The notes under the pieces: generated by a model | Database searches by the model: none | Told to the model about the DNA's origin: nothing | Seen by the model: only the letters and a program-made list of their open reading frames with translations | Source: Cyclobacteriaceae bacterium | GTDB taxonomy: Bacteria > Bacteroidota > Bacteroidia > Cytophagales > Cyclobacteriaceae | NCBI GenBank assembly: GCA_020436165.1 | Contig: JAGQYI010000076.1 | Span: 99,555-163,554 of the forward strand | Length of the DNA stretch: 64,000 bases | Direction of reading: 5' to 3' | Made by a program: the position numbers and the translations under genes | Shown: piece after piece, positions 34,318 through 54,555 of the stretch | How the letters are laid out: the number at the start of each line of letters is the position of its first letter | Numbering within the stretch: the first letter of the stretch is position 1

Positions 34318-34333
34318 TGTGAAATGCATCACA
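34318..34333. promoter_or_regulatory. perfect CRP-type palindrome TGTGA-N6-TCACA
   Basis: tgtgaaatgcatcaca. About 70 bp upstream of rhodanese start in the rhodanese/patB divergent region. Confidence 0.55.
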
Positions 34334-34533
34334 TACTACTCAAAAACATATATTTTAGGTAAAATACCTATTAAAGAACACCCTATTTCTTGAGCCTCAA
34401 ATGCTTCTTAAGGTTTTATGGATGCAAATTGACCCTCATTTTTTTTCAGATCTTCATCATCAAACCTTATCAATTAGTACAACCTGTTTTTAGATTGTTA
34501 ACGGTTTTGTTAATTTCAACAAAATTTAAAGCC

Positions 34534-35715
34534 ATGAGTGCCAAATTCGATAAGTATAAAAAAGAGATTGATCGTTCTACGTTTATCCGATACAGCGATA
34601 GTTATTTAAACTCCTTATTTGGTTCAACCAAAGTAGCTCCGCTTTGGGTAGCCGATTCCGATTTTATCGTAATGCCTGAATTGGTTAAAGCGATGAAAAA
34701 GGTAGCCAAACGTGGGCTGTATCCCTATGAGTTAAAAACACCTGCCATAAAACAACCTCTTATCGATTGGTTTACAAAACGTCATAAAATCAAACTTAAA
34801 ATGGATGGACTCCTGTTTACATCAAGCGTTCTTACCGGACTTGCCGCAGCAATTGATGAACTAACCTCAGAAGGAGATGGAATAATAATACAACCGCCTG
34901 TGTATAATGCCTTCAAAGGGTTAATAGAAGGCGTGGAAAGAAAGGTAGTGTTTAACCAACTTAAGCTGGTGGATGGTGCTTATGAAATGGATTTTGATGA
35001 TCTGAAAAAGAAAGCAGCTGAAAAAAAAACGAAAGCAATAATCCTTTGCAGCCCTCATAATCCAATCGGCAGGGTTTGGACCCGGAAAGAGCTTGAAAAA
35101 GTAGCCGAGATCTGCGTTGCCAATAATGTGCTCATGCTAACAGATGAAATACATTGCGATATCGTTTTCTCAAAAAGTAAGTTTGTTGGTATGACGGAAA
35201 TATATTCCGGTAAGTCTGATCAAATTATCATGTTTGGTTCAGCAGGAAAATCGTTCGGAATTCCGGGTTTGGTAGACTCGTTTATTTACACCCCAAATGA
35301 GGAATACAAAAAGGCCCTTCAAAGTAGAATTATGCGTTTCCACTTAGGCAAAAGCAATTCGTTTGGTATAGTAGCCATGAAAACCGTATACAAGCACGGA
35401 CACAAATGGCTGGACAAAAAACTGAGTTACCTTGAGAAAACCGTATTGATGATAGATGAATTCCTGAAAAAACACTTGCCAGAAGTTAAGTTGATTAAGC
35501 CTGAGGGCACCTATCAGGTGTGGCTTGATTTTAATGAGGTAGCAAAAAGTGATGAAGAATTGAGTGAATTACTCTTCAAAAAGGCCAAAGTGGGCATTGG
35601 CCTGGGCAGCATGTATAGCCCTAATGGCGAAGGTTTTGCCCGCATGAACATCGCCTCCCCTCAGCCGATGATTATGGATGCTTTGAAACAAATTGAGAAA
35701 GCTGTACATGTATAA
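34534..35715 (+). CDS. PLP-dependent C-S lyase (MalY/PatB-type cystathionine beta-lyase, aminotransferase class I/II)
   Basis: Collinear MalY/PatB-like sequence (…SPHNPIGRVW…, Lys in SAGKSFG). Start moved to MSAKFDKY (atg at 34534). Confidence 0.75.
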   Translation: MSAKFDKYKKEIDRSTFIRYSDSYLNSLFGSTKVAPLWVADSDFIVMPELVKAMKKVAKRGLYPYELKTPAIKQPLIDWFTKRHKIKLKMDGLLFTSSVLTGLAAAIDELTSEGDGIIIQPPVYNAFKGLIEGVERKVVFNQLKLVDGAYEMDFDDLKKKAAEKKTKAIILCSPHNPIGRVWTRKELEKVAEICVANNVLMLTDEIHCDIVFSKSKFVGMTEIYSGKSDQIIMFGSAGKSFGIPGLVDSFIYTPNEEYKKALQSRIMRFHLGKSNSFGIVAMKTVYKHGHKWLDKKLSYLEKTVLMIDEFLKKHLPEVKLIKPEGTYQVWLDFNEVAKSDEELSELLFKKAKVGIGLGSMYSPNGEGFARMNIASPQPMIMDALKQIEKAVHV

Positions 35716-35778
35716 TGTCATCCCTGCGAAGGCAGGGATCCTTTCGTTATTACCTCAAAATCGTGATGATGGTTCTTA

Positions 35779-37647
35779 TCAATTAAATTCCGGCACCTTA
35801 CATTGTTCGCTCATTTGCGAAAGCAACTCTTTAAAATCTTTATGGATGGACTGTTGCATTAATTCAGAATTCTGATCGTGGCAGGTAAAACAGGCCCCCA
35901 CGGTAAGTATTTTCTTCTGCTCTTTAACCGAGAAAGCCCTGAAGGTTAACCTCGTTGAGGTTTTGGGCATTGGTTCCTGCAAAAAACCAATCCATGCATC
36001 TGCAGGCAAACCGTCCTGAGCCAGATTCACATATTTTGGCGTAAATATCCATTCCGAAGTGCTTTTATCAAACGAAAGCTTGCCATGTCCATACCCCAGA
36101 GCAACTGGGTTGTTGTGGCACGATTTGCAATCACGACCTTTCGTGGCCGTAGTGTGGGGGGCGGCCGGTGCAAACAATCGATGAAAGGATGTATCGTTTA
36201 GCATCTTACCAGGGAAAGCAGTTTGATCCAACGTGAAAATCATACCCGGAATAGCCGAATGCACCTCCCGTTCCCCATTCTTTTCACTCACACCAAGGGT
36301 AGTTGGCCCTGCCAGAAATTCACCTGCGTATTCTATCCAGGAACCTTTAATATACTTTTTATCCAATAAGTCATAGCCATTGGCATCAGGATCGTAGTCC
36401 ACATGGCAACCAATGCACTGGGGCGCCCAACTCGAGTGGCAACTCGAACAAGTAAGGTCTTTATGGCCAAACTCCCTGGTACATACGCTTGCAGGTTGGT
36501 TTAGCGGATACTCAATTCCGTTACTTTTTCCTATCATAAACGCCTTGTTATCCTCTTTTACAAACGTGTTAAGCAAAGGTGAGGCATCTTTTTGTGTTAT
36601 TAAAAACTGCCTATGCGAGTATCCGCGTAAATTGTAAATACTTTTATCAATAAACTTTAAGCTATCAACATTTACTGTATTCCTTTCTTCGTTAAAAGAA
36701 TGACAGTCCTCGCAGCTAATTTTAACTGCATCTTCCTCATGTACGTACGTTTTTCCATCGCCCATTACATCCGAATACGTATGGCAATCAATACAGATAA
36801 GTCCCTTTGTATGGTGTACATCTTCGGCTATGTATTTAAAAACACGATCATCCTGCAACACCCTGTACCCCTCCATCGACTGTAAACTGTCTTTATGCAG
36901 CAATGTCTCGTGGTATCCTTCGTAATTGGTGGCAATACGGCCCGAACGGCTATGGCAACCAAAGCAATGCTCGTTGGTAATATTCAAATCCAACGAAGGG
37001 TGAATTTGAGGAAGATGGCTTGAATCCCTTATATAAGCCGAATGTGCTTCTATACCATCAGTCGTATAGTTCAAATGGCACGCATTGCACCCTCCTCCCC
37101 TCGAAAGCTGGTCTACAGGGCCGGTTTCGGTTTTCTCGTTTCCCAAATGACAACGAGAACATAAATTTCGCAAATGCTCATCTGCAGCACTATGCCCTAT
37201 GTAAGCCATATGAGCCGGAATATCAGGAGAAGGCCTTTCACCGAAAATATATTTGTCTACACTCACAATACCACTATTGGTGGTCATCATTGAGGCACGA
37301 ATATTTTGAACTGCTTCTGCATGGCATGTACCACACGTTTTTTCCATTGAAGAAACGTTTCCGGGAATAACCACCATACCGGCATGTGCTTCCTCAATCG
37401 TTTTGGCTTTATTGTTACCCATATGGCAGGAAGTGCACCCAATATTCACATGGCTTTTGCTCATTCCTGTAACTTGCACATGGCAGCTAACACATTCGCC
37501 ACCAGACGCATAGGATGTTTCATAGCTATTTGTAGTGAGGTTACTGTCAGTAGATACGCTATCAGCATCGTGCAACCACTGAATGGCAACCAAAAGCACC
37601 ATTAAGGACAGTATTACAACAAGAATAGTATAAAATGTATTTCTCAA
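35779..37647 (-). CDS. membrane-anchored dodecaheme c-type cytochrome
   Basis: N-terminal TM/signal anchor. Twelve CxxCH motifs counted directly. No CxxCK. Confidence 0.85.
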   Translation of the reverse strand: MRNTFYTILVVILSLMVLLVAIQWLHDADSVSTDSNLTTNSYETSYASGGECVSCHVQVTGMSKSHVNIGCTSCHMGNNKAKTIEEAHAGMVVIPGNVSSMEKTCGTCHAEAVQNIRASMMTTNSGIVSVDKYIFGERPSPDIPAHMAYIGHSAADEHLRNLCSRCHLGNEKTETGPVDQLSRGGGCNACHLNYTTDGIEAHSAYIRDSSHLPQIHPSLDLNITNEHCFGCHSRSGRIATNYEGYHETLLHKDSLQSMEGYRVLQDDRVFKYIAEDVHHTKGLICIDCHTYSDVMGDGKTYVHEEDAVKISCEDCHSFNEERNTVNVDSLKFIDKSIYNLRGYSHRQFLITQKDASPLLNTFVKEDNKAFMIGKSNGIEYPLNQPASVCTREFGHKDLTCSSCHSSWAPQCIGCHVDYDPDANGYDLLDKKYIKGSWIEYAGEFLAGPTTLGVSEKNGEREVHSAIPGMIFTLDQTAFPGKMLNDTSFHRLFAPAAPHTTATKGRDCKSCHNNPVALGYGHGKLSFDKSTSEWIFTPKYVNLAQDGLPADAWIGFLQEPMPKTSTRLTFRAFSVKEQKKILTVGACFTCHDQNSELMQQSIHKDFKELLSQMSEQCKVPEFN

Positions 37648-37822
37648 ATCGAGGCTGTATAAATCGTGTTTTCAAAGAAACTATTAATTACCGACTCCTG
37701 CATGTTACCAACTCCATTTTATTAGGCCCTAAACCTTTTTTTATTCATCTTTTTAACTGACTAAGGTCATGTTTCTGCAATTATATGAGAGGTAATTTTG
37801 ATGTGAATTTCAAGAGATCATG

Positions 37823-37844
37823 TGCTGAATTAAGCGGTTCAGCA
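37823..37844. promoter_or_regulatory. 22-bp palindrome TGCTGAA-N8-TTCAGCA in cytochrome/psrA divergent promoter
   Basis: Perfect 7-bp inverted arms, about 75 bp upstream of Mo-oxidoreductase start. Confidence 0.4.
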
Positions 37845-37908
37845 ATTTTTTAATGGGTATGATTTACGCTCAAAAAAGAATCAAATTTTTAACTAATCGA
37901 TTATTCTC

Positions 37909-40149
37909 ATGCGTACAAATCGAAGACAGTTTATTAAAATATCAGCTTTAGGAGCTGGTGGGGTAGCAGCCGTTTCCTCAACCAGTTTTGGCGGCTCATT
38001 TCTGTCCATCTTCGACTCTTCCGAGGATATCAGAGACATTGACTTCAAAAGGGTTCCAACCTATTGCGAAGTTTGTTTCTGGAAATGTGCCGGCTGGACT
38101 AATGTTGATAAAAAGGGCAATGTTGTTAAAATAATTGGCAACGAAGACGACCCTCATTGTAATGGACGCCTGTGTCCACGTGGTACAGGTGGAGTTGGTA
38201 TGTATACCGATACTGACCGACTAAAAACCCCTCTTATAAGAGTAAAGGGAGCAAATGGCGAAGAAGACACTTTCCGTGAAGCAACCTGGGACGAAGCACT
38301 TGACCTAATTGCAACAAAAATGAAAGGTGTGAAAGAAAAGTATGGGCCAGAAAGCTTTGCTTTACTTAAACACGGATCGTCAGGAGCACATTTTGAGCAT
38401 CTGTTCAAAGCTTATGGTTCTGACACCATTGGCGAGCCTGCCTATGCACAATGCCGCGGACCTCGTGAACAGGGTTTTGGTGCCACATTTGGAAGTTGGG
38501 TAGGTTCTCCTGAACCAACTGATATCCGCGATACCAAGTGCCTGGTGCTTATAGGTTCTCACATTGGTGAAAACATGCACAACAGCCAGGTACAGGAATT
38601 GGCTGACGCCATTGATAAAAAAGCAACAATCATAACCGTTGACCCACGTCTTTCAACCGTGGCTGGTAAATCACAGTACTGGCTGCCAATAAAACCTGCT
38701 ACTGATATTGCACTTTTATTATCCTGGATGCACGTACTTATCTATGAAAACCTGGTAGATGAAAAGTATATTGAAAAATATACCTACGGATTCAATGAGC
38801 TAAAAGAACACGTTAAAAATTATACTCCTGAGTGGGCTTACGGAATTACAACCATTGAACCAAGTGTGATAAGGAAAACAGCACGCGAAATGGCTGATGC
38901 TGCTCCTTCGGTAATTGTTCACCCTGGTCGCCACGTAACATGGTATGGAGATGATACACAAAGATCACGCGCCATAGCTATTTTAAATGGCTTGCTTGGC
39001 TCTTGGGGTAAACGAGGTGGTTTCTATCTGAAAGAGAAACTGGCTATTCCTAAATACCCTCAACCTCCATACCCACATCCGGAATGGGGATGGGAACAAA
39101 TTGGTGAAAAATACCCATTGGCTCAAATGGGAGTTACCAATGAGATTATTCGATGCTCAATCCCTGAAGAAGATACAGAATACAAGGTTAAAGCCTGGTT
39201 TGTTAGTGGAACCAACCTGCCAAAGAGTATTCCTGACAAAGACCAATTAGGAAAAGCGCTGGATTCGATCGAATTCCTGGCCGTTTGCGATACCATGCCA
39301 ATGGATATTACCGGTTATGCCGATGTAATCCTTCCTGAAGCAACCTATCTGGAAAGATACGATGGTTTGAGATCTGCTACCAACAGAGAGCCTTCGGTTG
39401 CTTTAAGGGCACCAGCCGTTGAACCTAAATACAATTCCAAACCATCGTGGTGGATGGCCAAGCAAATCGGAGAAAGATTAGGTTTGGGCGCATACTTTAA
39501 CTATAAAGATTATGCAGATGTACTTGACTGGCAATTGAAAAAAATCGGTTCTTCACTGGAAGAAATGAAACGCATTGGTGTGAAGAAGTTTGACCGCAAA
39601 AGTGGTCCTCTTTACATTGGCGATGGTGAAGATTACGAATTTGCTACCAATACAGGTAAAATAGAGCTTTACTCTACTGAATTGGCAAATATGGGTCACG
39701 ACCCTATGCCTAAGTACACTGCTCATGACGAACCTGATCAAGGATACTATCGATTGATCTACGGAAGAGCTCCAATGCATACCTTCAGTAGAACATCCAA
39801 CAACCCTAACCTGCACGACCTAATGAGTGAAAATAAGGTTTGGGTAAACCCACGTGTAGCCAAGATCTGGAATTTGCGAAACAACCAGGAGGTTTACCTT
39901 CAGAACCAGGACGGTGTTGTAAGTTCTTTCCCTGTTAAAGTTAGAGTTACGGAGCGTATCCGTTGGGACTCTGTCTATATGGTTCACGGCTTTGGCAATA
40001 CAGATAAACACTTAACCAGAGCTTACGGCAAGGGAGCAAGCGATACTGAATTAATAACTAAAGTATCAATCGATCCTTTGATGGGAGGAACCGGTATGAG
40101 AGGAAACTTTGTAACATTTATTACGGACAAAAATTTAGTTGAGTCATGA
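37909..40149 (+). CDS. TAT-exported molybdopterin (bis-MGD) oxidoreductase catalytic subunit, PsrA/PhsA/TtrA-like
   Basis: Twin-arginine signal (TNRRQFIKISALGAG). N-terminal Cys cluster C-x2-C-x3-C…C for [4Fe-4S]. 746 aa. Confidence 0.85.
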   Translation: MRTNRRQFIKISALGAGGVAAVSSTSFGGSFLSIFDSSEDIRDIDFKRVPTYCEVCFWKCAGWTNVDKKGNVVKIIGNEDDPHCNGRLCPRGTGGVGMYTDTDRLKTPLIRVKGANGEEDTFREATWDEALDLIATKMKGVKEKYGPESFALLKHGSSGAHFEHLFKAYGSDTIGEPAYAQCRGPREQGFGATFGSWVGSPEPTDIRDTKCLVLIGSHIGENMHNSQVQELADAIDKKATIITVDPRLSTVAGKSQYWLPIKPATDIALLLSWMHVLIYENLVDEKYIEKYTYGFNELKEHVKNYTPEWAYGITTIEPSVIRKTAREMADAAPSVIVHPGRHVTWYGDDTQRSRAIAILNGLLGSWGKRGGFYLKEKLAIPKYPQPPYPHPEWGWEQIGEKYPLAQMGVTNEIIRCSIPEEDTEYKVKAWFVSGTNLPKSIPDKDQLGKALDSIEFLAVCDTMPMDITGYADVILPEATYLERYDGLRSATNREPSVALRAPAVEPKYNSKPSWWMAKQIGERLGLGAYFNYKDYADVLDWQLKKIGSSLEEMKRIGVKKFDRKSGPLYIGDGEDYEFATNTGKIELYSTELANMGHDPMPKYTAHDEPDQGYYRLIYGRAPMHTFSRTSNNPNLHDLMSENKVWVNPRVAKIWNLRNNQEVYLQNQDGVVSSFPVKVRVTERIRWDSVYMVHGFGNTDKHLTRAYGKGASDTELITKVSIDPLMGGTGMRGNFVTFITDKNLVES

Positions 40150-40679
40150 GATACGCAATGGCAATAGACACCTTAAAATGTGTCGGATGTAGCGACTGTG
40201 TTGTCGCATGTCAAACAGAAAATAATGTGCCGATAGGCTACTGTCGCGACTGGATCACTGAGACAGTAGATGGTACCTATCCGCAACTGGAAATAGAATT
40301 ACGATCAGAACGATGCAACCACTGCGAAACCGCTCCTTGCGTACGCTGCTGCCCTACAGGTGCCAGCCAGATTGTAGACGGAGGTATCGTTATCGTGGAA
40401 CACGATGAGTGCATCGGTTGTGGAGCATGTATAGAATCGTGCCCTTACGAAGCACGTTACACCCACCCGGAAGGCTATGTAGACAAGTGTACTTTCTGCT
40501 TACACAGAGTAAAAGAAGGTTTACAACCTGCGTGTGTGGCCGCATGCCCTACCAAGTGTATGTACTTTGGAGATATTGACGACCCTAACAGCGAAATATC
40601 TCACATGCTTAAGACAAGAAAACAGAAAACACTTGCACCTGAAGCAGGTACTAATCCTCATATTTTTTACTTAATCTGA
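40146..40679 (+). CDS. 4x[4Fe-4S] ferredoxin-type electron-transfer subunit (PsrB-like)
   Basis: Four Cys clusters (CxxCxxCxxxCP pattern). 4-bp overlap with upstream gene. Confidence 0.85.
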   Translation: MRYAMAIDTLKCVGCSDCVVACQTENNVPIGYCRDWITETVDGTYPQLEIELRSERCNHCETAPCVRCCPTGASQIVDGGIVIVEHDECIGCGACIESCPYEARYTHPEGYVDKCTFCLHRVKEGLQPACVAACPTKCMYFGDIDDPNSEISHMLKTRKQKTLAPEAGTNPHIFYLI

Positions 40680-40686
40680 TTGAATC

Positions 40687-41637: not shown

Positions 41638-41663
41638 TTTTATAACAAGCTAAAGACAGAATT

Positions 41664-42197: not shown

Positions 42198-42216
42198 CCT
42201 TAAGAATTAGAATACT

Positions 42217-42807: not shown

Positions 42808-42818
42808 ATAACATAACT

Positions 42819-43436: not shown

Positions 43437-43458
43437 TTAATTACTTAAACAATTAATT

Positions 43459-44227: not shown

Positions 44228-44232
44228 AAAAA

Positions 44233-44811: not shown

Positions 44812-44835
44812 GCTATTTCCGTAATTTAGCCATCT

Positions 44836-45147: not shown

Positions 45148-45202
45148 AACAGAATATGGGGTATGTAATGTCTTCAATAATTGAGTGGATAGAGAATAGA
45201 TA

Positions 45203-45310
45203 GGACACCCTCGGCTTTTCTACATCCCCCTAATCCCCCTTCAAAAGGGGGACTTCATCTTTTGGTCAGAAGGAATGTCCCCTTGAGGGGACTTTAAGGG
45301 GGTGTTAAAC
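45203..45310 (+). repeat. ~105-bp GC-rich direct repeat, right copy
   Basis: See left copy. Confidence 0.7.
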
Positions 45311-45317
45311 CTACTAA

Positions 45318-47312: not shown

Positions 47313-47675
47313 TTATGAAACCACTAATAATTCCTTCTCAATTACGTCTTTCAACACATTTTTTGGAAGTGCACCAGCCTGCATTTTAGGAGTATCATTC
47401 AAAGGAATAAACAACATGCTAGGTATGCTACGGATTCCAAATACAGCCGAAAGCTCTTGCTCAGCTTCTGTATCCACCTTGAATATATCGATCTTACCAG
47501 CGTATTCCTCTGATAACTCTTCCAAAATAGGTGCTACCATTTTACAAGGTCCACACCAGTCTGCGTAAAAGTCGATTAAAGCAGGTTTGTCGCCTGCAAA
47601 TTCCCATTCGGTTTTTGTTGTATAATCAAAAACTTTTTTCTTAAAATCTTCAGTACTTAATAATGTCGTTGCCAT
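47313..47675 (-). CDS. thioredoxin
   Basis: 120 aa with WCGPCK active site. Confidence 0.9.
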   Translation of the reverse strand: MATTLLSTEDFKKKVFDYTTKTEWEFAGDKPALIDFYADWCGPCKMVAPILEELSEEYAGKIDIFKVDTEAEQELSAVFGIRSIPSMLFIPLNDTPKMQAGALPKNVLKDVIEKELLVVS

Positions 47676-47723
47676 GATAAATTCTTATTTAGTACAAAGG
47701 AAAAGTGCTAATAATAAGCTTAT

Positions 47724-47739
47724 TGTGATGTAAGTCACA
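47724..47739. promoter_or_regulatory. perfect CRP-type palindrome TGTGA-N6-TCACA in trx/sqr divergent promoter
   Basis: tgtgatgtaagtcaca, about 60 bp from both start codons. Confidence 0.55.
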
Positions 47740-47795
47740 TGGCTAAATCATTTTTTTTTGCGAGATTAGGAAATTCAACATTTAATCAATTTCTT

Positions 47796-49142
47796 ATGAG
47801 TAATAGCAAGCATCAAATAGTAATTATAGGTGGAGGAACAGGAGGTATTATGGCTGCTGCACAGTTGTTAAGAGCGCGAAAAGGTTTGGATGTAGCAGTA
47901 ATTGAACCCTCTGAGCAACATATGTATCAGCCCGCATGGACATTGGTAGGTGCCGGCCTGATGAAGAAATCGGCCACCATTAAACCTGAGAAAAAAGTAA
48001 TGCCCAAAGGGGCTACTTGGATAAAGGAATATGTGGAAACCATCAATCCCGATGAAAACGAAGTAGTGCTTCAAAACGGAGACAAGATAAACTACGAATA
48101 TCTTATTGCTGCTCCTGGCATTCAGATTAACCTGGATGGCATTGAGGGGCTTAAAGAAACCTTTGGTAAAAATGGAGTTTGCTCCAATTATGTGGATCCC
48201 GACTACACCTGGGAGGTGCTTCAAAACTTTAAAAGCGGAGTTGGTTTGTTCACGCAACCTGCCACTCCAATTAAATGCCCGGGGGCACCACAAAAAATAA
48301 TGTACCTGGCTGCAGATTACTTAAGAAGGAAGAAAAGGGAAAGTGATACGCAGCTTGTATTTGCCACTCCCGGTACCGTAATTTTTGGTACTGAGCCATT
48401 TAAATCAGAGCTTACCCACTACATAAACGATGTGTACAATATACCTCAACGCTATGGCTACAAGCTGGTAAAAGTTGACGGTGAAAAGAAAGAGGCACAT
48501 TATGAGCGCTTAGCGCTACCCGATGGCCGTACTGATTATGTAGTAAATGACGAACGTAACGCTGCAGGTTGTATTGGCTATGTATGGGATGGACAGGAAC
48601 AATACGTGGTAGAAGAGGAGAACAATCATATTGATGAATTGAAAGAGGGCACAAATTTCATTATCAAATTTGATATGCTGCACCTGGCACCGCCTCAATC
48701 AGCTCCCGGCTGGTTCCAGAAAACCAAACTGGCTAATCCGGATGGCCCTAACAAAGGCTGGATGGCAGTAGATGATGCTACACTTCAAAGTAGATTTTAC
48801 CCCAATGTATTTGGTATTGGCGATGTTACCGATCTTCCTACGGCAAGAACAGGTGCCGCTATTCGAAAGGAGGCACCAACTGTGGTTAAAAACCTGTTAA
48901 GCATAATGGATGGCAAGGCAGCCGATTATAAAGGTTACAATGGATATTCCTCTTGCCCTTTGGTAGTATCGCACAATAAAATGCTACTTGCCGAATTTAA
49001 ATATGGAAATGTTCGCAGCTCAGATCCATTGCTTTCTAAATTCTTTAATTTGGGCAAAGCCAGCTACCCTATGTGGTTGATGAAACGCTACGGACTTCCC
49101 AACCTTTACTGGCATGCCATGCTTAAAGGATATCAATTTTAG
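47796..49142 (+). CDS. sulfide:quinone oxidoreductase-like FAD-dependent pyridine nucleotide-disulfide oxidoreductase
   Basis: N-terminal GGGTGG FAD fold. Conserved Cys in …IKCPGAPQK… and …YSSCPLV…. Genomic context. Start moved to MSNSKHQIVIIGGG (atg at 47796). Confidence 0.7.
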   Translation: MSNSKHQIVIIGGGTGGIMAAAQLLRARKGLDVAVIEPSEQHMYQPAWTLVGAGLMKKSATIKPEKKVMPKGATWIKEYVETINPDENEVVLQNGDKINYEYLIAAPGIQINLDGIEGLKETFGKNGVCSNYVDPDYTWEVLQNFKSGVGLFTQPATPIKCPGAPQKIMYLAADYLRRKKRESDTQLVFATPGTVIFGTEPFKSELTHYINDVYNIPQRYGYKLVKVDGEKKEAHYERLALPDGRTDYVVNDERNAAGCIGYVWDGQEQYVVEEENNHIDELKEGTNFIIKFDMLHLAPPQSAPGWFQKTKLANPDGPNKGWMAVDDATLQSRFYPNVFGIGDVTDLPTARTGAAIRKEAPTVVKNLLSIMDGKAADYKGYNGYSSCPLVVSHNKMLLAEFKYGNVRSSDPLLSKFFNLGKASYPMWLMKRYGLPNLYWHAMLKGYQF

Positions 49143-49266: not shown

Positions 49267-49905
49267 ATGCGCGAACTGGTAGAGAAACACTTTCCTTTTT
49301 TCAAAGAACCCGAATTAGTGGATGCCATTGTAAATGTGGGAAAGGAAATAATTGTGAAAGAAGGTGAGCCTATTATTAAAATAGGTGAATTCATTAAAAG
49401 CACACCCCTTATCACAGAAGGGCTTTTAAAAGTAATTCGTCAGGACGAAAGCGGAAATGAAATTTTGCTCTACTACCTGGAAGGAGGCAATACTTGTGTA
49501 ATGACAGTTACGTGTTGTATGCACCAGGAAAAAAGTAAGATAAAGGCAATTGCCGAAAAAGACTCCCACCTTATTCTTATTCCCTTCCATTACATGGACG
49601 ATTGGATGCGTAATTTCCGAACCTGGAGAAACTTTATTCTCCAAACATATTCATCCCGTTTCGAAGAAATGCTTTCAACGCTGGATGCCACTGCTTTTGA
49701 AAGCCTTGACAACCGATTGATCAAATACCTGAACGATAAGCAAACGGTTATGGGCACCGATGAGTTCAGGGTCACGCATCAGCAAATTGCTTCAGAACTT
49801 AACTCCTCACGTGAGGCGGTAAGCCGGCTTTTGAAAAAACTGGAAATTCTTAAAGCCATTCAATTAGGAAGAAACAAAATAAAGATTCTAAAAGAACTGC
49901 ATTAA
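49267..49905 (+). CDS. Crp/Fnr-family transcriptional regulator (cNMP-binding-like sensor plus C-terminal HTH) with C-x5-CC cluster
   Basis: Beta-roll region with GGNTCVMTVTCC. HTH …IASELNSSREAVSRLLKKLE with CRP-like R-E-x-x-x-R recognition helix. Confidence 0.8.
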   Translation: MRELVEKHFPFFKEPELVDAIVNVGKEIIVKEGEPIIKIGEFIKSTPLITEGLLKVIRQDESGNEILLYYLEGGNTCVMTVTCCMHQEKSKIKAIAEKDSHLILIPFHYMDDWMRNFRTWRNFILQTYSSRFEEMLSTLDATAFESLDNRLIKYLNDKQTVMGTDEFRVTHQQIASELNSSREAVSRLLKKLEILKAIQLGRNKIKILKELH

Positions 49906-49910: not shown

Positions 49911-51086
49911 ATGCCAAAAACGTACAAAATATTGATAATAAGCCTATTATCACTGATGACAGTGTATGTAATAGGCACAAAGCTAGCTGCCTATTTTGTT
50001 GATAGCGGTTATAACAAAGTCGCCCAAAAACCACCTTACCGTACTACTGCCCAGGTACGAGCGCTTTACTACAACCTGCCGTTTGTGGCCGACCTGCACA
50101 GCGATGTTCTACTTTGGAACCGAAACATAGAAAAAAGGCATAAGTACGGCCATGAAGATATTCCGAGAATGATCGATGCCAACCTGGCGCTTCAGGCGTT
50201 TACCATCGTTAGTAAAACGCCCAAGAATATGAATTTCGATCACAACGATGATAAAACAGACAACATAACTGCCCTAATGTTTGCCACCGGAAGGCCTCCT
50301 TCCACCTGGTTTAGTTTGAAGGAAAGGGCTTTAGAACAATGTAGCGAACTATACCAGTATGCCCGTGTTTCTAAAGGAAGATTAAGGGTAATCACAAACC
50401 AATCTGAGCTGAAGCGATACATCAAAGACAGATCGGTAAACCCAAATCAAACCGCTGGTTTTCTGGGCGTAGAAGGCATGCAGGTGCTGGAGGGCGATAT
50501 TAACAATGTGCAGGCCATGTTCGATGCCGGAATTCGTATGATGGCACCCACACATTTTTTTGACAATAAGTTGGGAGGCTCGGCCCATGGAATCAACAAA
50601 GGAGGCCTCACCCCTTTTGGTGCAGAGGTGATAAAAAAAATGGAGAGCATGCACATGATCGTTGATCTGGCTCATGCCTCACCTGCACTCATAGATGATG
50701 TGCTGGACATAGCTACCCGGCCTCTTTTGGTCTCGCACACCGGTGTTAAGGGCACCTGTAACAACGTTAGAAATCTTTCAGATGAACACCTGAAAAGAAT
50801 TGCCGCAGGCGGAGGAATTGTTGGCATTGCAGTGTTTGAGCAAGCCGTTTGTGGAACGGATGCAGCTTCAACCGCACAGGCAATCAAGTACGCTTCGGAC
50901 CTTATTGGCTACGAGCATGTAGCGCTAGGCTCAGATTTTGATGGAGCCATACAAGCGCATTTTGATGTTACGGGTTTTCCGCTAATTGTTCAGGAATTGT
51001 TGAAGCTTGGCTTTAACGAAAAAGAAATTGCCGCCATTATGGGAGGCAATGTCCGAGATTTTTTGTTGAAGAATTTGCCGGAGTAA
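49911..51086 (+). CDS. membrane dipeptidase (peptidase M19 family)
   Basis: N-terminal anchor. DLHSD, VDLAH, SHTG, GSDFDG motifs. 6 bp after crp-family gene. Confidence 0.8.
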   Translation: MPKTYKILIISLLSLMTVYVIGTKLAAYFVDSGYNKVAQKPPYRTTAQVRALYYNLPFVADLHSDVLLWNRNIEKRHKYGHEDIPRMIDANLALQAFTIVSKTPKNMNFDHNDDKTDNITALMFATGRPPSTWFSLKERALEQCSELYQYARVSKGRLRVITNQSELKRYIKDRSVNPNQTAGFLGVEGMQVLEGDINNVQAMFDAGIRMMAPTHFFDNKLGGSAHGINKGGLTPFGAEVIKKMESMHMIVDLAHASPALIDDVLDIATRPLLVSHTGVKGTCNNVRNLSDEHLKRIAAGGGIVGIAVFEQAVCGTDAASTAQAIKYASDLIGYEHVALGSDFDGAIQAHFDVTGFPLIVQELLKLGFNEKEIAAIMGGNVRDFLLKNLPE

Positions 51087-51087: not shown

Positions 51088-51960
51088 CTATTTATGCCTT
51101 TTAAAGGGTTCAATATTTTGCCCTCCAAATCCTTGCGGATAGTTTTCAATATCTTCAAAACCTAACTTAATGTCGCGCCCTGAATGCGGTATGTGGGCTG
51201 TTTTGAAAATATAATCCCAAATACTCAACGTTATACCGTAATTAATACCGTATGGGTGGTCTTCCGGCAACTCTTTTGAATGATGCCAGATGTGCATAGC
51301 AGGATTATTCAGTAGATACTTAAAAGGCCCATATGTAATATTCAGGTTTGAGTGATTCAAATGACCAATCATTATATTAAAAGCATGCATTACAAACAAG
51401 TCATTAAGCCCAAACCCTATCATTGTTAATGGAACAAAAAGTGCTGTTTTGTAAAAAATATTTTCCATCCAATGGTATCGAAGATGCGCAGCAAACCCCA
51501 TTTCCTCTACCGAATGGTGTACTTTATGAAACTGCCACATCCAATCTACCCGATGTAGCATAACATGCACGCTCCATTGAATGAAATCGGAAAGAAGAAA
51601 AAGAATTAAAAAACGAGCCCAGATAGGCAAGCTATCCAATTCAATGGCTATAACGTTTTCAACTCCGAACAGACCTAAAAAATTGTTAAAAAGTTCTACC
51701 CCCACATTTGAAATGGCATTATAAGCGACCAAAGAGAATATGAAGAAGTTGAAGAACATGTAAAAAGCATCAAGCCAGAAATCCTTACGAAAGACCGCCT
51801 GGTTTTTTCGCCATGGAAAAGCCAATTCCAGTCCCCAAACAAGTAAGGAAAGCACAATAAGATAGTAAAAGTAATTGCCCCATCCCGGGTGCGTAATTTC
51901 ATATACCATGTAATTCCAATAGCCGGTATATGAGTCGTATATGGTTTTCCAAATGTCCAT
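51088..51960 (-). CDS. sterol desaturase/fatty-acid hydroxylase superfamily membrane protein
   Basis: Histidine boxes HRVDWMWQFHKVHH, HLRYHW, HIWHH. Confidence 0.8.
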   Translation of the reverse strand: MDIWKTIYDSYTGYWNYMVYEITHPGWGNYFYYLIVLSLLVWGLELAFPWRKNQAVFRKDFWLDAFYMFFNFFIFSLVAYNAISNVGVELFNNFLGLFGVENVIAIELDSLPIWARFLILFLLSDFIQWSVHVMLHRVDWMWQFHKVHHSVEEMGFAAHLRYHWMENIFYKTALFVPLTMIGFGLNDLFVMHAFNIMIGHLNHSNLNITYGPFKYLLNNPAMHIWHHSKELPEDHPYGINYGITLSIWDYIFKTAHIPHSGRDIKLGFEDIENYPQGFGGQNIEPFKRHK

Positions 51961-52189: not shown

Positions 52190-52651
52190 TTATTTACCAG
52201 TTGGTAAGCCTTGTTGCCTCCAGGCGTTTATTCCACCTGCAAGGTTATAAACTTCTTTAAAACCCATGCTATTAAGCACTTGCATAGCGCTTCCGCTTCT
52301 TCCTCCAACAGCGCAATACACCATTACAGGAGCATTTTTATCAAGAGTCTTTAGCTGTTCTTTAAAATCCGGGGCGTAAAAATTCATATGTACACTGCCG
52401 ACTATTGCTCCCTGAGCTACCTCTTGAGGTGTTCTTACATCCAGTATAACACCATTCTTCTTGGTTTCTATTAATTGTTTAAACTCCGTAGTGTTAACAT
52501 TTTTTGCAATGCTTTCAGAAGACACCGTAGTTTTATTGGTAGCAGCCTGTGCAGATTTCTGATTTTGAGAATTTCCACACGATGCAAGCCCAAGTGATAA
52601 AGTGAGGGCTACGCCAAAAATCGCAATTCGTTTCATAGTAAAGTTGTTCAT
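52190..52651 (-). CDS. rhodanese-domain sulfurtransferase lipoprotein (active-site Cys present)
   Basis: Lipoprotein signal (LGLASCGN). CAVGGRSG active loop. Confidence 0.8.
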   Translation of the reverse strand: MNNFTMKRIAIFGVALTLSLGLASCGNSQNQKSAQAATNKTTVSSESIAKNVNTTEFKQLIETKKNGVILDVRTPQEVAQGAIVGSVHMNFYAPDFKEQLKTLDKNAPVMVYCAVGGRSGSAMQVLNSMGFKEVYNLAGGINAWRQQGLPTGK

Positions 52652-52707
52652 CTAAAAATTATACCTAATAACAAACCACAAATTAAAAAGTTCAAAATTT
52701 ATGCTCG

Positions 52708-52723
52708 TGTGATAAAGAACACA
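52708..52723. promoter_or_regulatory. CRP-type palindrome with one mismatch (TGTGA-N6-ACACA)
   Basis: tgtgataaagaacaca in rhodanese/sulP divergent region. Confidence 0.4.
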
Positions 52724-52818
52724 TTGAGACACTGCAATTGAACCTTATTTTGCTAACTTACACAAAACACTCCTGGGCAAAGGGTTTGACGTAATTCTGA
52801 ATAACGAACAACCGTAAA

Positions 52819-54492
52819 ATGAAAAAATACCTTCCTATTTTAACCTGGTTGCCGGGCTATAAAAAAGAATTTCTTTCGGGTGATCTCTCAGCTGGCTTAA
52901 CGGTTGGGGTTATGCTCATACCCCAGGGCATGGCCTATGCCATGATAGCTGGCCTTCCTCCGGTTTATGGCCTTTATGCCGCTATGATTCCTCAAGTAGT
53001 TTATGCAATTTTTGGAACCTCCCGACAACTGGGCGTTGGTCCTGTTGCCATGGACTCGCTTCTTGTAGCTGCGGGCGTATCGGTAATTGCAGAAGCAGGA
53101 AGCGAAAACTATATTTCGCTTGCTATCCTGCTTGCCTTTATGATGGGCGTAATACAACTTTTGCTAGGCATCTTCAGGATGGGGTTTCTTGTCAATTTTT
53201 TATCAAAACCGGTAATCAGTGGATTTACTTCCGCAGCTGCTTTAATAATTGCCCTTAACCAACTAAAGCATCTGATTGGTGTAAATATTACCAGAAACAA
53301 CAACATATTCCTGATTCTTTACGATGCCATTTTGAAATTTAATCAATTTCACTGGCTTTCCATTCTCATAGGTATTGTTGGGATTATTATTCTCAAAAAC
53401 ATTAAAAAAATTCACAAAGCCATTCCGGGTGCTCTGGTGGCAGTTGTTTTAGGCATTCTCGCAGTAAAGTTCTTTAAGTTAGAGGGTTATGGAGTAAAAA
53501 TTGTTGGCGATGTTCCCAAAGGAATGCCTGACTTCGCCATACCCGCCATTCATTCCGAGCATTTCAACGATTTGATTCCCATCGCCCTAACTTTGGCACT
53601 CATTGCCTTTATGGAAGCCATATCCGTTGCAAAGGCATTGCAATCAAAACATAAAGACGAGTACAAACTAAATGCGAACCAGGAACTTATTGGTTTGGGT
53701 ATGGGAAATCTGGTAGGCTCATTCTTTAGTTGCTACCCAACAACAGGAGGTTTTAGTAGGTCAGCTGTAAACGAACAGACTGGTGCACGAACAAACCTTG
53801 CTGCCATTATTAGTGCTTCACTTGTAGCACTTACTCTTTTGTTTTTGACTCCTGTGTTTTACTTCTTGCCAAAATCTATTCTTGCCGCAATCATAATGGT
53901 GGCAGTATTTGGATTAATAGATCTAAAATTCCCAGTACTTCTATGGAAGACAAAAAAGGAAGACCTGGTAATGCTACTTATCGCTTTTGGTGTAACGCTT
54001 GGTTTTGGTATTAAAGAAGGCATTGGTGTAAGTGTGGTTATTTCACTGCTCGCCATGATCTATAGAAGTACTAAGCCACATTATGCGGTTCTGGGTAAAA
54101 TGCCTGATTCCAAGGAATACAGAAATATTGAACGCTTTCCCAACGTTGAAATCAGAGAGGATATTTTGGTTATCAGATACGATGCTGACCTTTATTTCGC
54201 CAATACCAACCATTTTGTGGAAACGCTAACGGAAGAAGTTGATAAAAAAGGAGATAAGCTTAAGCTTATAGTTTTGCATGGAGGCAGCATTGCCCATATG
54301 GACACCACAGCATACCAGGCACTCGCTGAATTTATTCAGTATGTTAAAAAAAGTGGAATTGAGGTCCATTTTGCTTATGTTATTGGCCCCACGAGAGACT
54401 TTTTAAGTAAAGCCGGGCTTAGAAATATTATAGGAGAAGACAAGTGCTTCTTAGATATTGAAAGTGCCATAAGTGCATACGATAAAAAATAA
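52819..54492 (+). CDS. SulP family anion permease with C-terminal STAS domain
   Basis: 557 aa. SulP TM core. STAS (…IVLHGGSIAHMDTTAYQAL…). Confidence 0.9.
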   Translation: MKKYLPILTWLPGYKKEFLSGDLSAGLTVGVMLIPQGMAYAMIAGLPPVYGLYAAMIPQVVYAIFGTSRQLGVGPVAMDSLLVAAGVSVIAEAGSENYISLAILLAFMMGVIQLLLGIFRMGFLVNFLSKPVISGFTSAAALIIALNQLKHLIGVNITRNNNIFLILYDAILKFNQFHWLSILIGIVGIIILKNIKKIHKAIPGALVAVVLGILAVKFFKLEGYGVKIVGDVPKGMPDFAIPAIHSEHFNDLIPIALTLALIAFMEAISVAKALQSKHKDEYKLNANQELIGLGMGNLVGSFFSCYPTTGGFSRSAVNEQTGARTNLAAIISASLVALTLLFLTPVFYFLPKSILAAIIMVAVFGLIDLKFPVLLWKTKKEDLVMLLIAFGVTLGFGIKEGIGVSVVISLLAMIYRSTKPHYAVLGKMPDSKEYRNIERFPNVEIREDILVIRYDADLYFANTNHFVETLTEEVDKKGDKLKLIVLHGGSIAHMDTTAYQALAEFIQYVKKSGIEVHFAYVIGPTRDFLSKAGLRNIIGEDKCFLDIESAISAYDKK

Positions 54493-54539
54493 TCTAATAG
54501 GTAAATTCGATTTTGCGATAGATTATTTTGATTTTCTTA

Positions 54540-54555
54540 TGTAATTTTAATCACA
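54540..54555. promoter_or_regulatory. CRP-type palindrome with one mismatch (TGTAA-N6-TCACA; extended TATGTAA-N6-TCACATA)
   Basis: About 77 bp upstream of persulfide dioxygenase fusion gene. Confidence 0.45.

Follow-up and report, generated by a model that had tools for sequence, protein, structure and literature searches.

The window analysed here is a 64,000-nucleotide stretch of Cyclobacteriaceae DNA that carries an island of sulfur genes. Profile and structure-database matches agree with the gene identities that a first-pass annotation had read from the sequence: a rhodanese, a PatB-type C-S lyase, a thioredoxin, a sulfide:quinone oxidoreductase (SQR), a Crp/Fnr regulator, a second rhodanese, a SulP protein and an MBL-plus-rhodanese persulfide dioxygenase (PDO) fusion. 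For SQR, the start is corrected from 47739 to the ATG at 47796. The genes considered here are:

33968..34255, minus strand: rhd1, single-domain rhodanese (Pfam Rhodanese, 7.6e-10)
34390..35715, plus strand: PatB-family C-S lyase (NCBIfam TIGR04350, 357.5 against a cutoff of 340)
47313..47675, minus strand: trx, thioredoxin, divergent from sqr (Pfam Thioredoxin, 3.2e-25)
47796..49142, plus strand: sqr, SQR, type II-like (phmmer against the PDB: human SQR, 2e-92; Pfam Pyr_redox_2)
49267..49905, plus strand: Crp/Fnr-family regulator (Pfam cNMP_binding and HTH_Crp_2)
49911..51086, plus strand: M19 membrane dipeptidase, 5 nt downstream of the regulator gene (Pfam Peptidase_M19, 6e-64)
51088..51960, minus strand: FA_hydroxylase-superfamily membrane protein, downstream of rhd2 (Pfam FA_hydroxylase, 2.5e-26)
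52190..52651, minus strand: rhd2, rhodanese with an N-terminal signal or lipoprotein-like segment (Pfam Rhodanese, 5.4e-21)
52819..54492, plus strand: SulP-family anion transporter with a STAS domain (NCBIfam sulP, 512.6 against a cutoff of 380)
54625..56040, plus strand: pdo-rhd, persulfide dioxygenase (MBL fold) with two rhodanese domains (Pfam Lactamase_B and two Rhodanese stretches)

The PDO-rhodanese fusion matches MBL-rhodanese proteins of the PDB (3tp9 and 3r2u) over its full length and also matches ETHE1. The regulator gene probably shares a transcript with its upstream neighbour sqr and with the M19 dipeptidase gene that follows it, and the synteny of regulator and dipeptidase is kept in close relatives (L001-L010). 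The FA_hydroxylase-superfamily gene is likewise conserved in the cluster by synteny; no role is assigned to it.

Four TGTGA-N6-TCACA boxes, two perfect and two with one mismatch, are present where the first-pass annotation had placed them:

34318..34333, no strand: predicted operator box 1, TGTGAAATGCATCACA, perfect match, 17.8 bits, intergenic between rhd1 (minus) and patB (plus)
47724..47739, no strand: predicted operator box 2, TGTGATGTAAGTCACA, perfect match, 20.2 bits, common to the divergent trx and sqr promoters
52708..52723, no strand: predicted operator box 3, TGTGATAAAGAACACA, one mismatch, 14.7 bits, at -41.5 for the rhd2 and sulP promoters
54540..54555, no strand: predicted operator box 4, TGTAATTTTAATCACA, one mismatch, 20.9 bits, upstream of pdo-rhd

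The two perfect palindromes compare with 0.03 expected in the window, and none of 100 dinucleotide shuffles contained two or more. When up to one mismatch was allowed, the four boxes compared with 1.97 expected and 10 of 100 shuffles reached four, so the imperfect pair (boxes 3 and 4) is not significant by count alone; what validates these two is that they are conserved in orthologous promoters and fit the promoter geometry. The window was also scanned with a position weight matrix derived from orthologous sites, for which these same four boxes were part of the training set. It gave four hits of at least 14 bits where 0.33 were expected, and 500 shuffles never gave more than 3. The hits were the boxes listed above, with no further site in the window; none lay outside sulfur promoters or in the window's 28 kb of unrelated genes, and the matrix scan found no box at a neighbouring psrABC-like operon of the same island. 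The operator consensus is tGTGAt-N4-aTCACa.

To assess conservation, we examined 94 related loci from Cytophagales and Flavobacteriaceae, comprising 14 genome loci and 80 metagenome loci, the latter with regulators only 42-52% identical. The boxes are conserved across these loci. In the 14 genome loci they are again found in front of the rhd1, trx/sqr, rhd2/sulP and pdo orthologues and of the regulator gene. Box 1 has counterparts upstream of rhd1 in L002 and L009-L013, and box 3 has orthologous boxes in L009, L010, L012 and L013, while GTGA and TCACA of box 2 are invariant in an alignment of seven orthologous intergenic regions. A site was found for 27 of the 29 PDO orthologues that have an upstream gap and for 14 of 21 sulP orthologues. 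Membership of patB in the regulon is doubtful: none of its five orthologues has a site under the strict scan, no -7 box was found at +36.5 in its direction from box 1, and its likely start, the ATG at 34534, lies 208 nt from the box centre.

Sites in the related loci are concentrated at sulfur genes. Across the 94 loci, 100 of 133 sulfur-family genes had a site compared with 43 of 520 other genes (odds ratio 33.6); the sampling favours DNA near the regulator gene, and these counts are not whole-genome. Every matrix hit of at least 12 bits was intergenic (38/38), and strict palindromes occurred at 0.757 per kb in intergenic DNA compared with 0.033 per kb in coding DNA. The target families, counted by loci, were PDO-Rhd (31), TauE (17), SulP (14), SQR (12), YeeE (8), Trx (7), YgaP-like (5) and CydA (2). 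Boxes also occur upstream of rhodaneses, only occasionally upstream of cytochrome bd, and in some loci at EB_dh/FeS/NrfD oxidoreductase operons. The conserved boxes, their concentration at sulfur genes and the lack of any other window site support the sulfur-gene regulon first proposed from this stretch alone. By sequence comparison, with no binding experiment, the four boxes are judged to be real, conserved operator sites.

The boxes also stand at a fixed distance from their promoters, for which we inferred the following elements:

34289..34296, minus strand: inferred rhd1 -7 box, TTTTTTTG (minus strand), G 36.5 nt from the box 1 centre, inferred transcription start site (TSS) ~34284
47695..47702, minus strand: inferred trx -7 box, TTCCTTTG (minus strand), inferred TSS ~47690
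47762..47769, plus strand: inferred sqr -7-like box, weak, GAGATTAG, G at +37.5 from the box 2 centre
52679..52686, minus strand: inferred rhd2 -7 box, TTAATTTG (minus strand), inferred TSS ~52674
52745..52752, plus strand: inferred sulP -7 box, TTATTTTG, inferred TSS ~52757
54577..54584, plus strand: inferred pdo -7 box, TAAACTTG, inferred TSS ~54589

The distance from box centre to the G of TTTG is exactly +36.5 nt for 44 of the 82 site-gene pairs and +35.5 for another 5. Box 3 has TTTG on either side, each at 36.5 nt, and CAAA of the trx -7 box is invariant in the intergenic alignment; the sqr promoter is looser in its spacing than the others. The full T-A-n-n-T-T-T-G profile emerged in the aligned promoters although nothing selected for it, and these promoters contain no conserved -33 TTG, an element that is weak or undetectable across Flavobacteria generally (PMC7366714). 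In Flavobacterium, TAnnTTTG occupies -12 to -5 (PMC9723704), so a box centre 36.5 nt upstream of its G falls at -41.5, as for box 1 relative to the rhd1 -7 box. This position matches that of a class II Crp/Fnr-dependent promoter, where the dimer site is centred near -41.5 and adjoins or stands in for the upstream promoter element; the value depends on the -7 box position reported for Flavobacterium psychrophilum, and the TSSs are inferred and unmapped in this lineage. Measured from box centre to start codon, the distances are 56 nt (trx), 64.5 (sqr), 64 (rhd2), 70 (rhd1), 77.5 (pdo) and 103.5 (sulP). These values correct the 55-80 bp spacing initially ascribed to the boxes. The trx start codon is 54-60 nt from the box in all seven loci.

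The regulator gene, correctly assigned to Crp/Fnr in the same island, is the only one of its superfamily in the window. Its product satisfies the superfamily definition (an N-terminal cNMP-binding-type beta-roll, a long dimerisation helix and a C-terminal Crp-type HTH), with Pfam PF00027, PF13545 and PF00325 above their cutoffs and no CsoR, ArsR or sigma-54 enhancer-binding domains detected by Pfam. The AF2 model (pLDDT 87.8) matches 3dv8, CRP, FNR and GlxR at TM 0.7-0.84. Its sole low-confidence part is the cysteine loop at residues 80-86 (pLDDT <50), the geometry of which is unresolved. The motif here, C77-x5-C83-C84, holds the only cysteines of the window protein. All three are invariant in 118 family members and kept in 89/89, 89/89 and 88/89 of the locus regulators, and the database patterns that fetched the loci did not contain them. 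By BLASTP alignment the motif falls on CRP residues 71-83, in the region of the cAMP pocket. The cAMP phosphate-binding cassette, which in CRP has Arg82 and Ser83, is not intact: the serine is retained as S90, but K89, itself variable in distant relatives, stands in place of R82, and a 3-residue insertion accompanies C77, C83 and C84. The three cysteines and nearby Met and His would be compatible with a haem or Fe-S cofactor.

We considered and rejected orthology with two well-known family members. An E. coli-type CRP is ruled out by a score of 35.5 bits against the NF008732 cutoff of 266 and by the lack of CRP R82. FNR is ruled out by a score of 27.7 against the NF008365 cutoff of 228 and by an operator of TGTGA type; FNR has an N-terminal Cys cluster that with Cys122 holds a [4Fe-4S] centre, and an operator TTGAT-N4-ATCAA, whereas the regulator has cysteines at 77, 83 and 84 only and no FNR-type N-terminal cluster. 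The best match in both sequence (1.4e-22) and fold (TM 0.84) is PDB 3dv8, a structural-genomics Crp/Fnr-family protein of Eubacterium rectale whose corresponding loop has C-x5-C and whose helix has R-E-x3-R. 3dv8 differs in lacking the second cysteine of the CC pair and in coming from a different phylum, and its function and genomic context are not known.

The recognition helix of the regulator reads S-R-E-A-V-S-R, and R182, E183 and R187 align with CRP R180, E181 and R185, fulfilling the R-E-x3-R triad. Within the family this triad determines specificity, E181 and R185 making the contacts to base pairs 7 and 8 (PMC2677863). Where the regulators of relatives carry E to V, their boxes change from GTGA to GTAA, a natural G-to-A exchange at the base pair that E181 contacts in E. 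coli CRP: half-sites number 49 G and 13 A for E-type regulators, and 3 G and 73 A for V-type regulators. The V-type regulators form one clade, and a nested E-type group has G-type sites again. This covariation of specificity residue and box sequence links the protein to the site, and the local Crp/Fnr protein is the likely binder of the boxes, in the absence of binding data. The covariation represents few independent events (a minimum of two on a neighbour-joining tree) with an exception at one locus, L080, where the regulator is V-type but the boxes read GTGAT. The same S-R-E-V-x-S-R helix is found in many Bacteroidota paralogues without C-x5-CC; some residual possibility of cross-talk or of another binder remains.

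Collectively, the analysis establishes site conservation, sulfur-gene enrichment, fixed promoter geometry and protein-site covariation computationally. We consider it probable that the boxes are operators through which the neighbouring Crp/Fnr regulator activates sulfide-oxidation genes in class II fashion, in response to a sulfur signal read by its cysteines. A regulator dimer would bind tGTGAt-N4-aTCACa through the CRP-like helix residues R182, E183 and R187, at boxes centred at -41.5 of weak sigma-A promoters, with three boxes each serving two divergent promoters. SQR would convert sulfide to persulfide, and the PDO-rhodanese fusion and free rhodaneses would carry persulfide on to sulfite and thiosulfate. 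The oxidised product would probably leave the cell through SulP (export is inferred), a role that TauE may fill in relatives, and thioredoxin, together with the relatives' YeeE, YgaP-like proteins and cytochrome bd, would round out the pathway. The regulator's own operon, sqr-crp-M19, would be under the same control. The motif C77-x5-C83-C84, placed where the cAMP phosphate-binding cassette would be, is proposed to be modified or bridged by sulfane sulfur derived from sulfide, turning the regulator on; a cofactor bound to the same cysteines could do the same job. This role of the cysteines is inferred, not shown, as is the sulfide-derived nature of the signal: the term 'sulfide-responsive' is drawn from the gene content of the regulon, which matches that controlled by known persulfide sensors (PMC13467558).

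Two other readings would keep the boxes and the regulator but change the signal. Oxygen or general thiol redox could act through a disulfide switch, or through a cofactor (haem or an O2-labile Fe-S cluster) of the kind used by FNR, CooA or HcpR, with the genes tuned to oxygen availability. Crp/Fnr members commonly sense O2, NO or CO, the fold resembles FNR, PDO requires O2, and boxes stand at cytochrome bd and the EB_dh/FeS/NrfD operons in some loci. NreB offers a precedent for a three-cysteine [2Fe-2S] sensor, but of sulfide (PMC13478379). The regulon, however, consists mostly of sulfane-sulfur detoxification and export rather than respiratory or fermentative genes, and the regulator has neither the FNR-type cysteine cluster nor an adequate score to the FNR model; we regard an oxygen or redox signal as unlikely. 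We think it quite unlikely that a small sulfur metabolite (sulfite, thiosulfate, cysteine or a low-molecular-weight thiol or persulfide) binds non-covalently in the old cAMP pocket, with the cysteines merely lining it. The cysteine motif does stand in for the phosphate-binding cassette, and PrfA, which glutathione activates and which would be the analogue, has company within the family in NtcA-2-oxoglutarate and CprK-chlorophenol. Three invariant cysteines including a vicinal CC, kept over 42-100% identity, are nevertheless more typical of redox or covalent chemistry or metal ligation.

The direction of control is also inferred, as no experiment bears on activation versus repression. The protein might instead sit on the -33 region until an inducer releases it, like CstR, SqrR and BigR; among well-studied dithiol persulfide sensors, FisR alone is not a repressor (PMC13467558), a site over -49 to -34 could occlude sigma region 4, and the absent -33 element is non-diagnostic given its general weakness in Flavobacteria. 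The box-to--7 spacing, by contrast, is rigid to a single nucleotide in most promoters, as is typical of activators that touch RNA polymerase, whereas the sites of repressors tend to vary in position, as the PSOS-1 motif of Chlorobiaceae is reported to do. Two divergent promoters, moreover, have one box between them that is placed symmetrically, at -41.5 to each. Crp/Fnr proteins bound at this position classically act as activators, and we judge repression very unlikely. Hardly tenable is the suggestion that the boxes belong to global catabolite control of the cAMP-CRP type, or are palindromes that arose by chance, with only an incidental sulfur link. The box is identical to the E. coli CRP consensus and the one-mismatch pair fails by count, but conservation, enrichment and covariation contradict this view, as do the restriction of window boxes to sulfur promoters and the regulator's distance from the CRP equivalog.

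Activation as favoured here shares with E. coli CRP at class II promoters a cNMP-type beta-roll and winged HTH, R-E-x3-R, TGTGA-N6-TCACA and the -41.5 position. It differs in a non-orthologous regulator that has lost the cAMP phosphate Arg and carries C-x5-CC inserted in the pocket, in a small, sulfur-dedicated regulon rather than global catabolite control, and in promoters of the Bacteroidota sigma-A type (-7 TAnnTTTG). The gene set is that of CstR (CsoR family), SqrR/BigR/YgaV (ArsR family) and FisR (sigma-54 activator), namely SQR, PDO or a PDO-rhodanese fusion, rhodaneses, TauE-type exporters and YeeE/YedE; as in those systems, the regulator gene lies within the cluster and conserved cysteines are the probable sensing element. 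The control expected of a reactive-sulfur sensor, over SQR, PDO, sulfurtransferases and sulfite or thiosulfate transporters, is likewise predicted here, from sites and with no expression data. Sensors of this kind also have conserved cysteines that persulfide drives into di- or polysulfide links with a change in DNA binding; for the regulator the evidence is the invariance of its cysteines alone. In contrast to those sensors, the regulator belongs to the unrelated Crp/Fnr family, has three cysteines with a vicinal pair in one loop rather than two distant cysteines, and is a predicted class II activator of sigma-A promoters rather than acting by derepression (CstR, SqrR and BigR) or with sigma-54 (FisR). 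FNR, CooA, Dnr and HcpR are of the same superfamily and use the sensor domain for small reactive molecules, FNR and CooA being class II activators, although FNR has the N-terminal cluster. NreB demonstrates that three cysteines can hold a sulfide-sensing Fe-S cluster, but is a PAS-domain kinase and no member of Crp/Fnr.

The primary sensors listed in a 2026 review all belong to the CsoR, ArsR or Fis families (PMC13467558), and we found no dedicated Crp/Fnr-type sulfide or persulfide regulator in the searchable literature, in line with the novelty that the first-pass annotation claimed, for this lineage, for a Crp-family regulator of SQR and PDO genes. What emerges looks like a Bacteroidota-wide switch for sulfide-oxidation genes, apparently undescribed before, with its signal unproven. 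The closest lead comes from a 2017 preprint on Chlorobaculum tepidum (bioRxiv 10.1101/172254), in which psrABC and cydAB, both induced by sulfide, were linked to an untested 'CRP-like motif' (CLM). CLM is a prediction only, with sites ~57-58 nt upstream of the TSS; SQR of C. tepidum is under a different motif and the repressor CT1277, and CT1719, the Crp/Fnr protein proposed as the binder, is missing from the other Chlorobiaceae examined. CLM is nonetheless a CRP/PrfA-like palindrome in a sister phylum, and has a PrfA-like core, TAAC-N4-GTTA, similar to GTAAC-N4-GTTAC, the V-type box of the loci examined here.

The first-pass annotation had proposed four CRP-type boxes (TGTGA-N6-TCACA) beside sulfur genes, together with a Crp/Fnr-family regulator gene in the same island. 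All four boxes were recovered exactly, and no other Crp/Fnr gene was found within the window, leaving the regulator as the only one.

34318 (16 bp): box 1, perfect palindrome, between the rhodanese gene rhd1 and patB
47724 (16 bp): box 2, perfect palindrome, between thioredoxin (trx) and sulfide:quinone oxidoreductase (sqr)
49267-49905, plus strand: the Crp/Fnr-family regulator
52708 (16 bp): box 3, one mismatch, between the rhodanese gene rhd2 and the transporter gene sulP
54540-54555: box 4, one mismatch, upstream of pdo, the persulfide dioxygenase-rhodanese fusion

The two perfect palindromes exceed chance (2 versus 0.03 expected; at least two in 0 of 100 shuffles). By count alone the one-mismatch boxes are not significant, as four sites with at most one mismatch compare with 1.97 expected and were reached in 10 of 100 shuffles. 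Matrix hits of at least 14 bits in the window comprise these four boxes only (0.33 expected), in DNA of ~40% G+C from a metagenome-assembled genome of the Cyclobacteriaceae (Cytophagales, Bacteroidota). The flanking genes have the identities first given to them, namely rhodanese, PatB-type C-S lyase, thioredoxin, SQR, regulator, rhodanese, SulP and PDO fusion. The SQR, starting at the ATG at 47796, has human SQR as its best solved relative (2e-92), in the pdo product an MBL-fold persulfide dioxygenase is joined to two rhodanese domains, and an M19 dipeptidase gene comes next after the regulator gene. A search of the window against Rfam at gathering thresholds found no RNA elements.

Conservation of the box in orthologous promoters, on which the proposed regulon had been made to depend, was seen in both close (14) and distant (80) loci carrying relatives of the regulator. 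In the close set of genome loci (L numbers denote loci; regulators 52-88% identical to the window protein), the rhd1-patB box is present in L002 and L009-L011, the trx-sqr box in L002, L004, L009-L011 and L014, and the rhd2-sulP box in L009, L010, L012 and L013, with a box 5′ of pdo in L009-L013. A symmetric matrix derived from the close-relative sites has the consensus tGTGAt-N4-aTCACa, and all 38 of its hits of at least 12 bits in the window and the 14 loci are intergenic. When seven trx-sqr intergenic regions were aligned, the conserved islands were the box and the trx -7 element. The distant set came from a metagenome scan based on an alignment of family members, using search patterns without the cysteine motif described below, and added 80 loci with regulators 42-52% identical. 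Where enough flank was available, the regulator mostly adjoins PDO-rhodanese, SulP, rhodanese or thioredoxin genes. The box there takes the form cTGTAAC-N4-GTTACag and lies 5′ of 25/29 pdo and 14/19 sulP genes, 52-63 nt before the start codon. Such regulators are present in cultured Flavobacteriaceae (Flagellimonas, Muricauda and Allomuricauda).

A general CRP regulon, with the motif equally upstream of unrelated genes, would have refuted the proposal. We assessed this in 1.10 Mb (the window plus 94 loci), a sample that has flanks of at most 10 kb around the relatives and over-represents the surroundings of the regulator. The strict palindrome GT[GA]A[TC]N4[GA]T[CT]AC gave 141 intergenic matches (0.757 per kb) against 30 within ORFs (0.033 per kb). 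Among genes with an upstream gap of at least 50 bp, a site was carried by 100/133 sulfur-family genes versus 43/520 others (odds ratio 33.6). A general regulon is thus not what we see in the DNA sampled, which included no whole genomes.

Genes downstream of sites in the 1.10 Mb sampled
PDO-Rhd and rhodanese: 36 ORFs in 31 loci
TauE/SafE sulfite exporter: 17
SulP: 14
SQR: 12
Regulator itself: 10
YeeE/YedE: 8
Thioredoxin: 7
YgaP-like membrane protein: 5
Small zinc-ribbon membrane protein: 5
EB_dh haem protein: 4
Outer-membrane efflux protein: 4
SAM methyltransferase: 3
Cytochrome bd subunit I: 2
Cytochrome c: 2

The same gene set is governed in other phyla by CstR, SqrR/BigR and FisR, and includes a sulfide-resistant oxidase turned on under sulfide stress (PMC13467558). 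In two distant loci, a box 55-58 nt before the start codon of the cytochrome bd subunit I gene (L051 17347, L071 19086) suggests that a sulfide-insensitive oxidase is in the regulon of some Flavobacteriaceae.

The recognition helix of the regulator, S-S-R-E-A-V-S-R, aligns to S-R-E-T-V-G-R of Escherichia coli CRP, with R182, E183 and R187 in the places of R180, E181 and R185. Throughout the family the R-E-x3-R triad determines which operator is bound; in CRP, the G and A of TGTGA (base pairs 7 and 8) are contacted by E181 and R185 (PMC2677863). Relatives carry either S-R-E-[AV]-x-S-R (E-type) or S-R-V-V-x-S-R (V-type). At the base pair contacted by E181, half-sites in sulfur promoters divide into 49 G and 13 A for E-type regulators and 3 G and 73 A for V-type regulators (Fisher 1.7e-21, uncorrected for phylogeny). 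V-type regulators form one large clade in a neighbour-joining tree, and nested inside it is an E-type group (L040, L053 and L088) whose boxes are again G-type, indicating at least two coordinated changes of protein and site. The one clear exception is the V-type regulator at L080 5876 (S-R-V-V-I-S-R), whose neighbouring pdo gene has the perfect G-type box TGTGATAATTATCACA. By analogy, this natural covariation mirrors the E181V/L/K mutants of CAP, reportedly shown by Ebright and colleagues to shift preference to A:T at base pair 7. An S-R-E-V-x-S-R helix is common to many Bacteroidota paralogues, a caveat for any assignment of the binder. Co-location, the matching recognition helix and the covariation nevertheless make the local regulator the best candidate to bind the boxes, a prediction for which there are no binding data.

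The pdo box keeps one A-type half-site (TGTAA...TCACA) both in the window (54540-54555) and in three close relatives (L009 17630, L010 17169 and L011 14061), all genomes with E-type regulators; other promoters there, unlike the pdo box, are G-type in both halves. This asymmetric box may be a deliberately weaker operator that raises the induction threshold of PDO.

The boxes also hold a rigid position relative to the promoter. In 44/82 site-gene pairs the distance from the box centre to the G of a TTTG is exactly +36.5 nt; in 5 it is +35.5, and each other offset is seen at most twice. Selecting on TTG alone at that position yields the Bacteroidota sigma-A -7 box (T 0.90, A 0.75, n, n, T 0.90, T, T, G). 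In Flavobacterium psychrophilum the -7 box spans -12 to -5 (PMC9723704), which, combined with the observed spacing, places the box centre at -41.5. The site-gene promoter profile contains no conserved -33 TTG, and the inferred 5′ UTR has a median length of 19 nt. A centre at -41.5 is the classical class II Crp/Fnr position. The spacing rule is kept by promoters of TauE (12/17), YeeE (6/8), the efflux protein (4/4) and the zinc-ribbon protein (5/5) and, in the window, by those of rhd1, trx, rhd2, sulP and pdo; the sqr promoter, at +37.5, is one nucleotide off and has a weaker -7 box. Boxes 2 and 3 stand at about -41.5 for two divergent promoters simultaneously. Because the spacing is rigid to the single nucleotide, contact with RNA polymerase is favoured, and activation rather than repression is probable, with transcription starts inferred rather than mapped. 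PatB is a doubtful member of the regulon, since the patB side of box 1 does not follow the rule, having no correctly spaced -7 box. A strict-scan site was present in 0/5 patB orthologues.

In the window the regulator gene sits downstream of sqr. In close relatives without a preceding sqr, a box lies ~110-185 nt 5′ of the regulator gene but lacks -41.5 geometry toward it, and direct autoregulation there is uncertain. The regulator gene in close relatives is divergent from an operon for an EB_dh haem protein, a 4Fe-4S protein and NrfD, with sites beside that operon at L001 7146, L015 2806, L005 9877, L008 9871, L003 9876 and L007 9809, and also at L001 4252 and L003 2363. On the operon side, a further conserved element (AATAATGGGGGTCAT or a TGAGT-N2-ACTCA palindrome) follows 21 nt past the box, and the -7 box is ~58.5 nt from the box centre. 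The site is thus near -63.5, an architecture different from the -41.5 type, and a second factor may be involved. In 13 distant loci the gene directly 5′ of the regulator gene encodes a protein of ~120-137 aa that has no Pfam hit and combines two or three membrane helices with a zinc-ribbon-like CPRC...C motif at its N terminus (L049 1485-1898, L034 9525-9893, L046 5276-5644, L048 1885-2241, L078 9571-9912 and 8 more loci). In five loci its gene is preceded by a box with -41.5 geometry, so that this gene and the regulator gene may constitute an autoregulated operon.

By domains and fold the regulator belongs to the Crp/Fnr superfamily. It is not a CRP orthologue (35.5 against an NCBIfam cutoff of 266), and it falls far below the NCBIfam cutoffs for NtcA and FNR. 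Its sole cysteines, C77, C83 and C84, lie in the motif G-G-N-T-C-x5-C-C-M. These three residues do not vary among 118 family members, and of 89 full-length locus regulators 89, 89 and 88, respectively, have them. The motif aligns to the phosphate-binding cassette for cAMP in CRP, with a three-residue insertion and Lys for Arg82, and the structure model has low confidence only in residues 80-86 of this cysteine loop. Searching 1.84 billion cluster representatives with a profile returned 480 clusters at E ≤1e-30; in the best 150 of these, 51 had C-x5-CC, 25 had C-x5-C and 74 had neither, indicating that the motif marks a subfamily. The closest solved structure, 3dv8 of Eubacterium rectale, has C-x5-C like the regulator.

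Computation supports the operator, the regulon and the geometry well. For the signal and the cysteine chemistry we rely on inference from the content of the regulon and on analogy with dithiol persulfide sensors and with NreB, a three-cysteine [2Fe-2S] sulfide sensor (PMC13478379). In the mechanism we propose, sulfide entering or formed in the cell would be oxidized to sulfane sulfur, which would modify or bridge the loop cysteines or alter a cofactor that they hold. This change would order the former nucleotide pocket and switch on DNA binding, and a dimer at -41.5 would bring RNA polymerase to the weak promoters flanking it on one side or both. The outcome would be higher expression of SQR, PDO-rhodanese, rhodaneses, thioredoxin and a product exporter (SulP or TauE), as well as of the regulator through the sqr-crp-M19 operon. 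That C-x5-CC proteins sense sulfide-derived sulfane sulfur directly, with a covalent bridge between loop cysteines replacing the allosteric role of cAMP in a class II activator, or else through a sulfide-binding three-cysteine cofactor, is a tentative hypothesis to which we give somewhat less than even weight. If true, Bacteroidota would have their first primary reactive-sulfur sensor, one of a new structural class in which the Crp/Fnr nucleotide pocket has been converted to a thiol switch.

Marine sediments, particles and guts all harbour Bacteroidota in abundance and, to our knowledge, the sulfide sensing and detoxification of these bacteria are essentially unknown; all the characterized dedicated persulfide sensors that we know of are proteins of three other families, from Proteobacteria and Firmicutes. 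In a 2026 review, the primary reactive-sulfur sensors are confined to the CsoR, ArsR and Fis families (PMC13467558). A Crp-family regulator of SQR or PDO, considered new for this lineage in the first-pass annotation, was absent from the literature searched, which left most subscription journals outside, and an earlier description is possible. The closest lead is a CRP/PrfA-like motif predicted in a 2017 preprint 5′ of the sulfide-induced psrABC and cydAB of Chlorobaculum tepidum, with the Crp/Fnr protein CT1719 named as its candidate binder, untested (bioRxiv 10.1101/172254). The SQR of that organism has a different motif and a different repressor (bioRxiv 10.1101/172254). Relative to CstR, SqrR and FisR, we regard the regulator as a Crp/Fnr class II activator recruited to the same role but with a distinct cysteine-based sensor loop, signal and activation both being inferred. 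If confirmed, these findings would supply a regulator, operator and regulon for a whole phylum, a new activator-type scaffold for sulfide biosensors and a natural example of the E181 specificity switch of CRP, operator and protein having changed jointly. The experimental path would be clear, as cultured strains of Flagellimonas, Muricauda and Allomuricauda carry close relatives.

Boxes 1 and 2 enclose a second sulfur module.

35779-37647, minus strand: multihaem cytochrome c
37909-41637: psrABC-like molybdopterin/4Fe-4S/NrfD operon
41664-42197 and 42217-42807: YeeE/YedE gene, split into two ORFs
42819-44085: two rhodaneses

The matrix scan found no box of at least 12 bits in this module (35779-44085), which therefore appears to be under separate control. 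Next to it, a non-coding, repeat-rich patch (44086-45317) surrounds a DUF559 gene (Vsr-like endonuclease domain; 44836-45147) flanked by 83-nt direct repeats (92% identical; 44728-44810 and 45227-45309), with 24-33-nt repeats nearby at 44111-44373; the patch has the look of a small insertion. At 51088-51960 (minus strand) a weakly OlsE-like membrane protein of the fatty-acid-hydroxylase superfamily is encoded, which is conserved beside rhd2 or the regulator in many close and distant loci. An 86-aa ORF with no Pfam or NCBIfam family match (56105-56365, plus strand) is conserved directly 3′ of pdo-rhd in L010-L013, L079 and L093. The first 28 kb of the window hold unrelated transport and polysaccharide-utilization genes. 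The polysaccharide-utilization-type cluster upstream of the sulfur island (18109-31275) includes GH3 and GH16, an unannotated 1022-aa ORF that is possibly a SusC-type receptor (25128-28196, minus strand) and a hybrid regulator with Y_Y_Y and Reg_prop domains (28402-31275).
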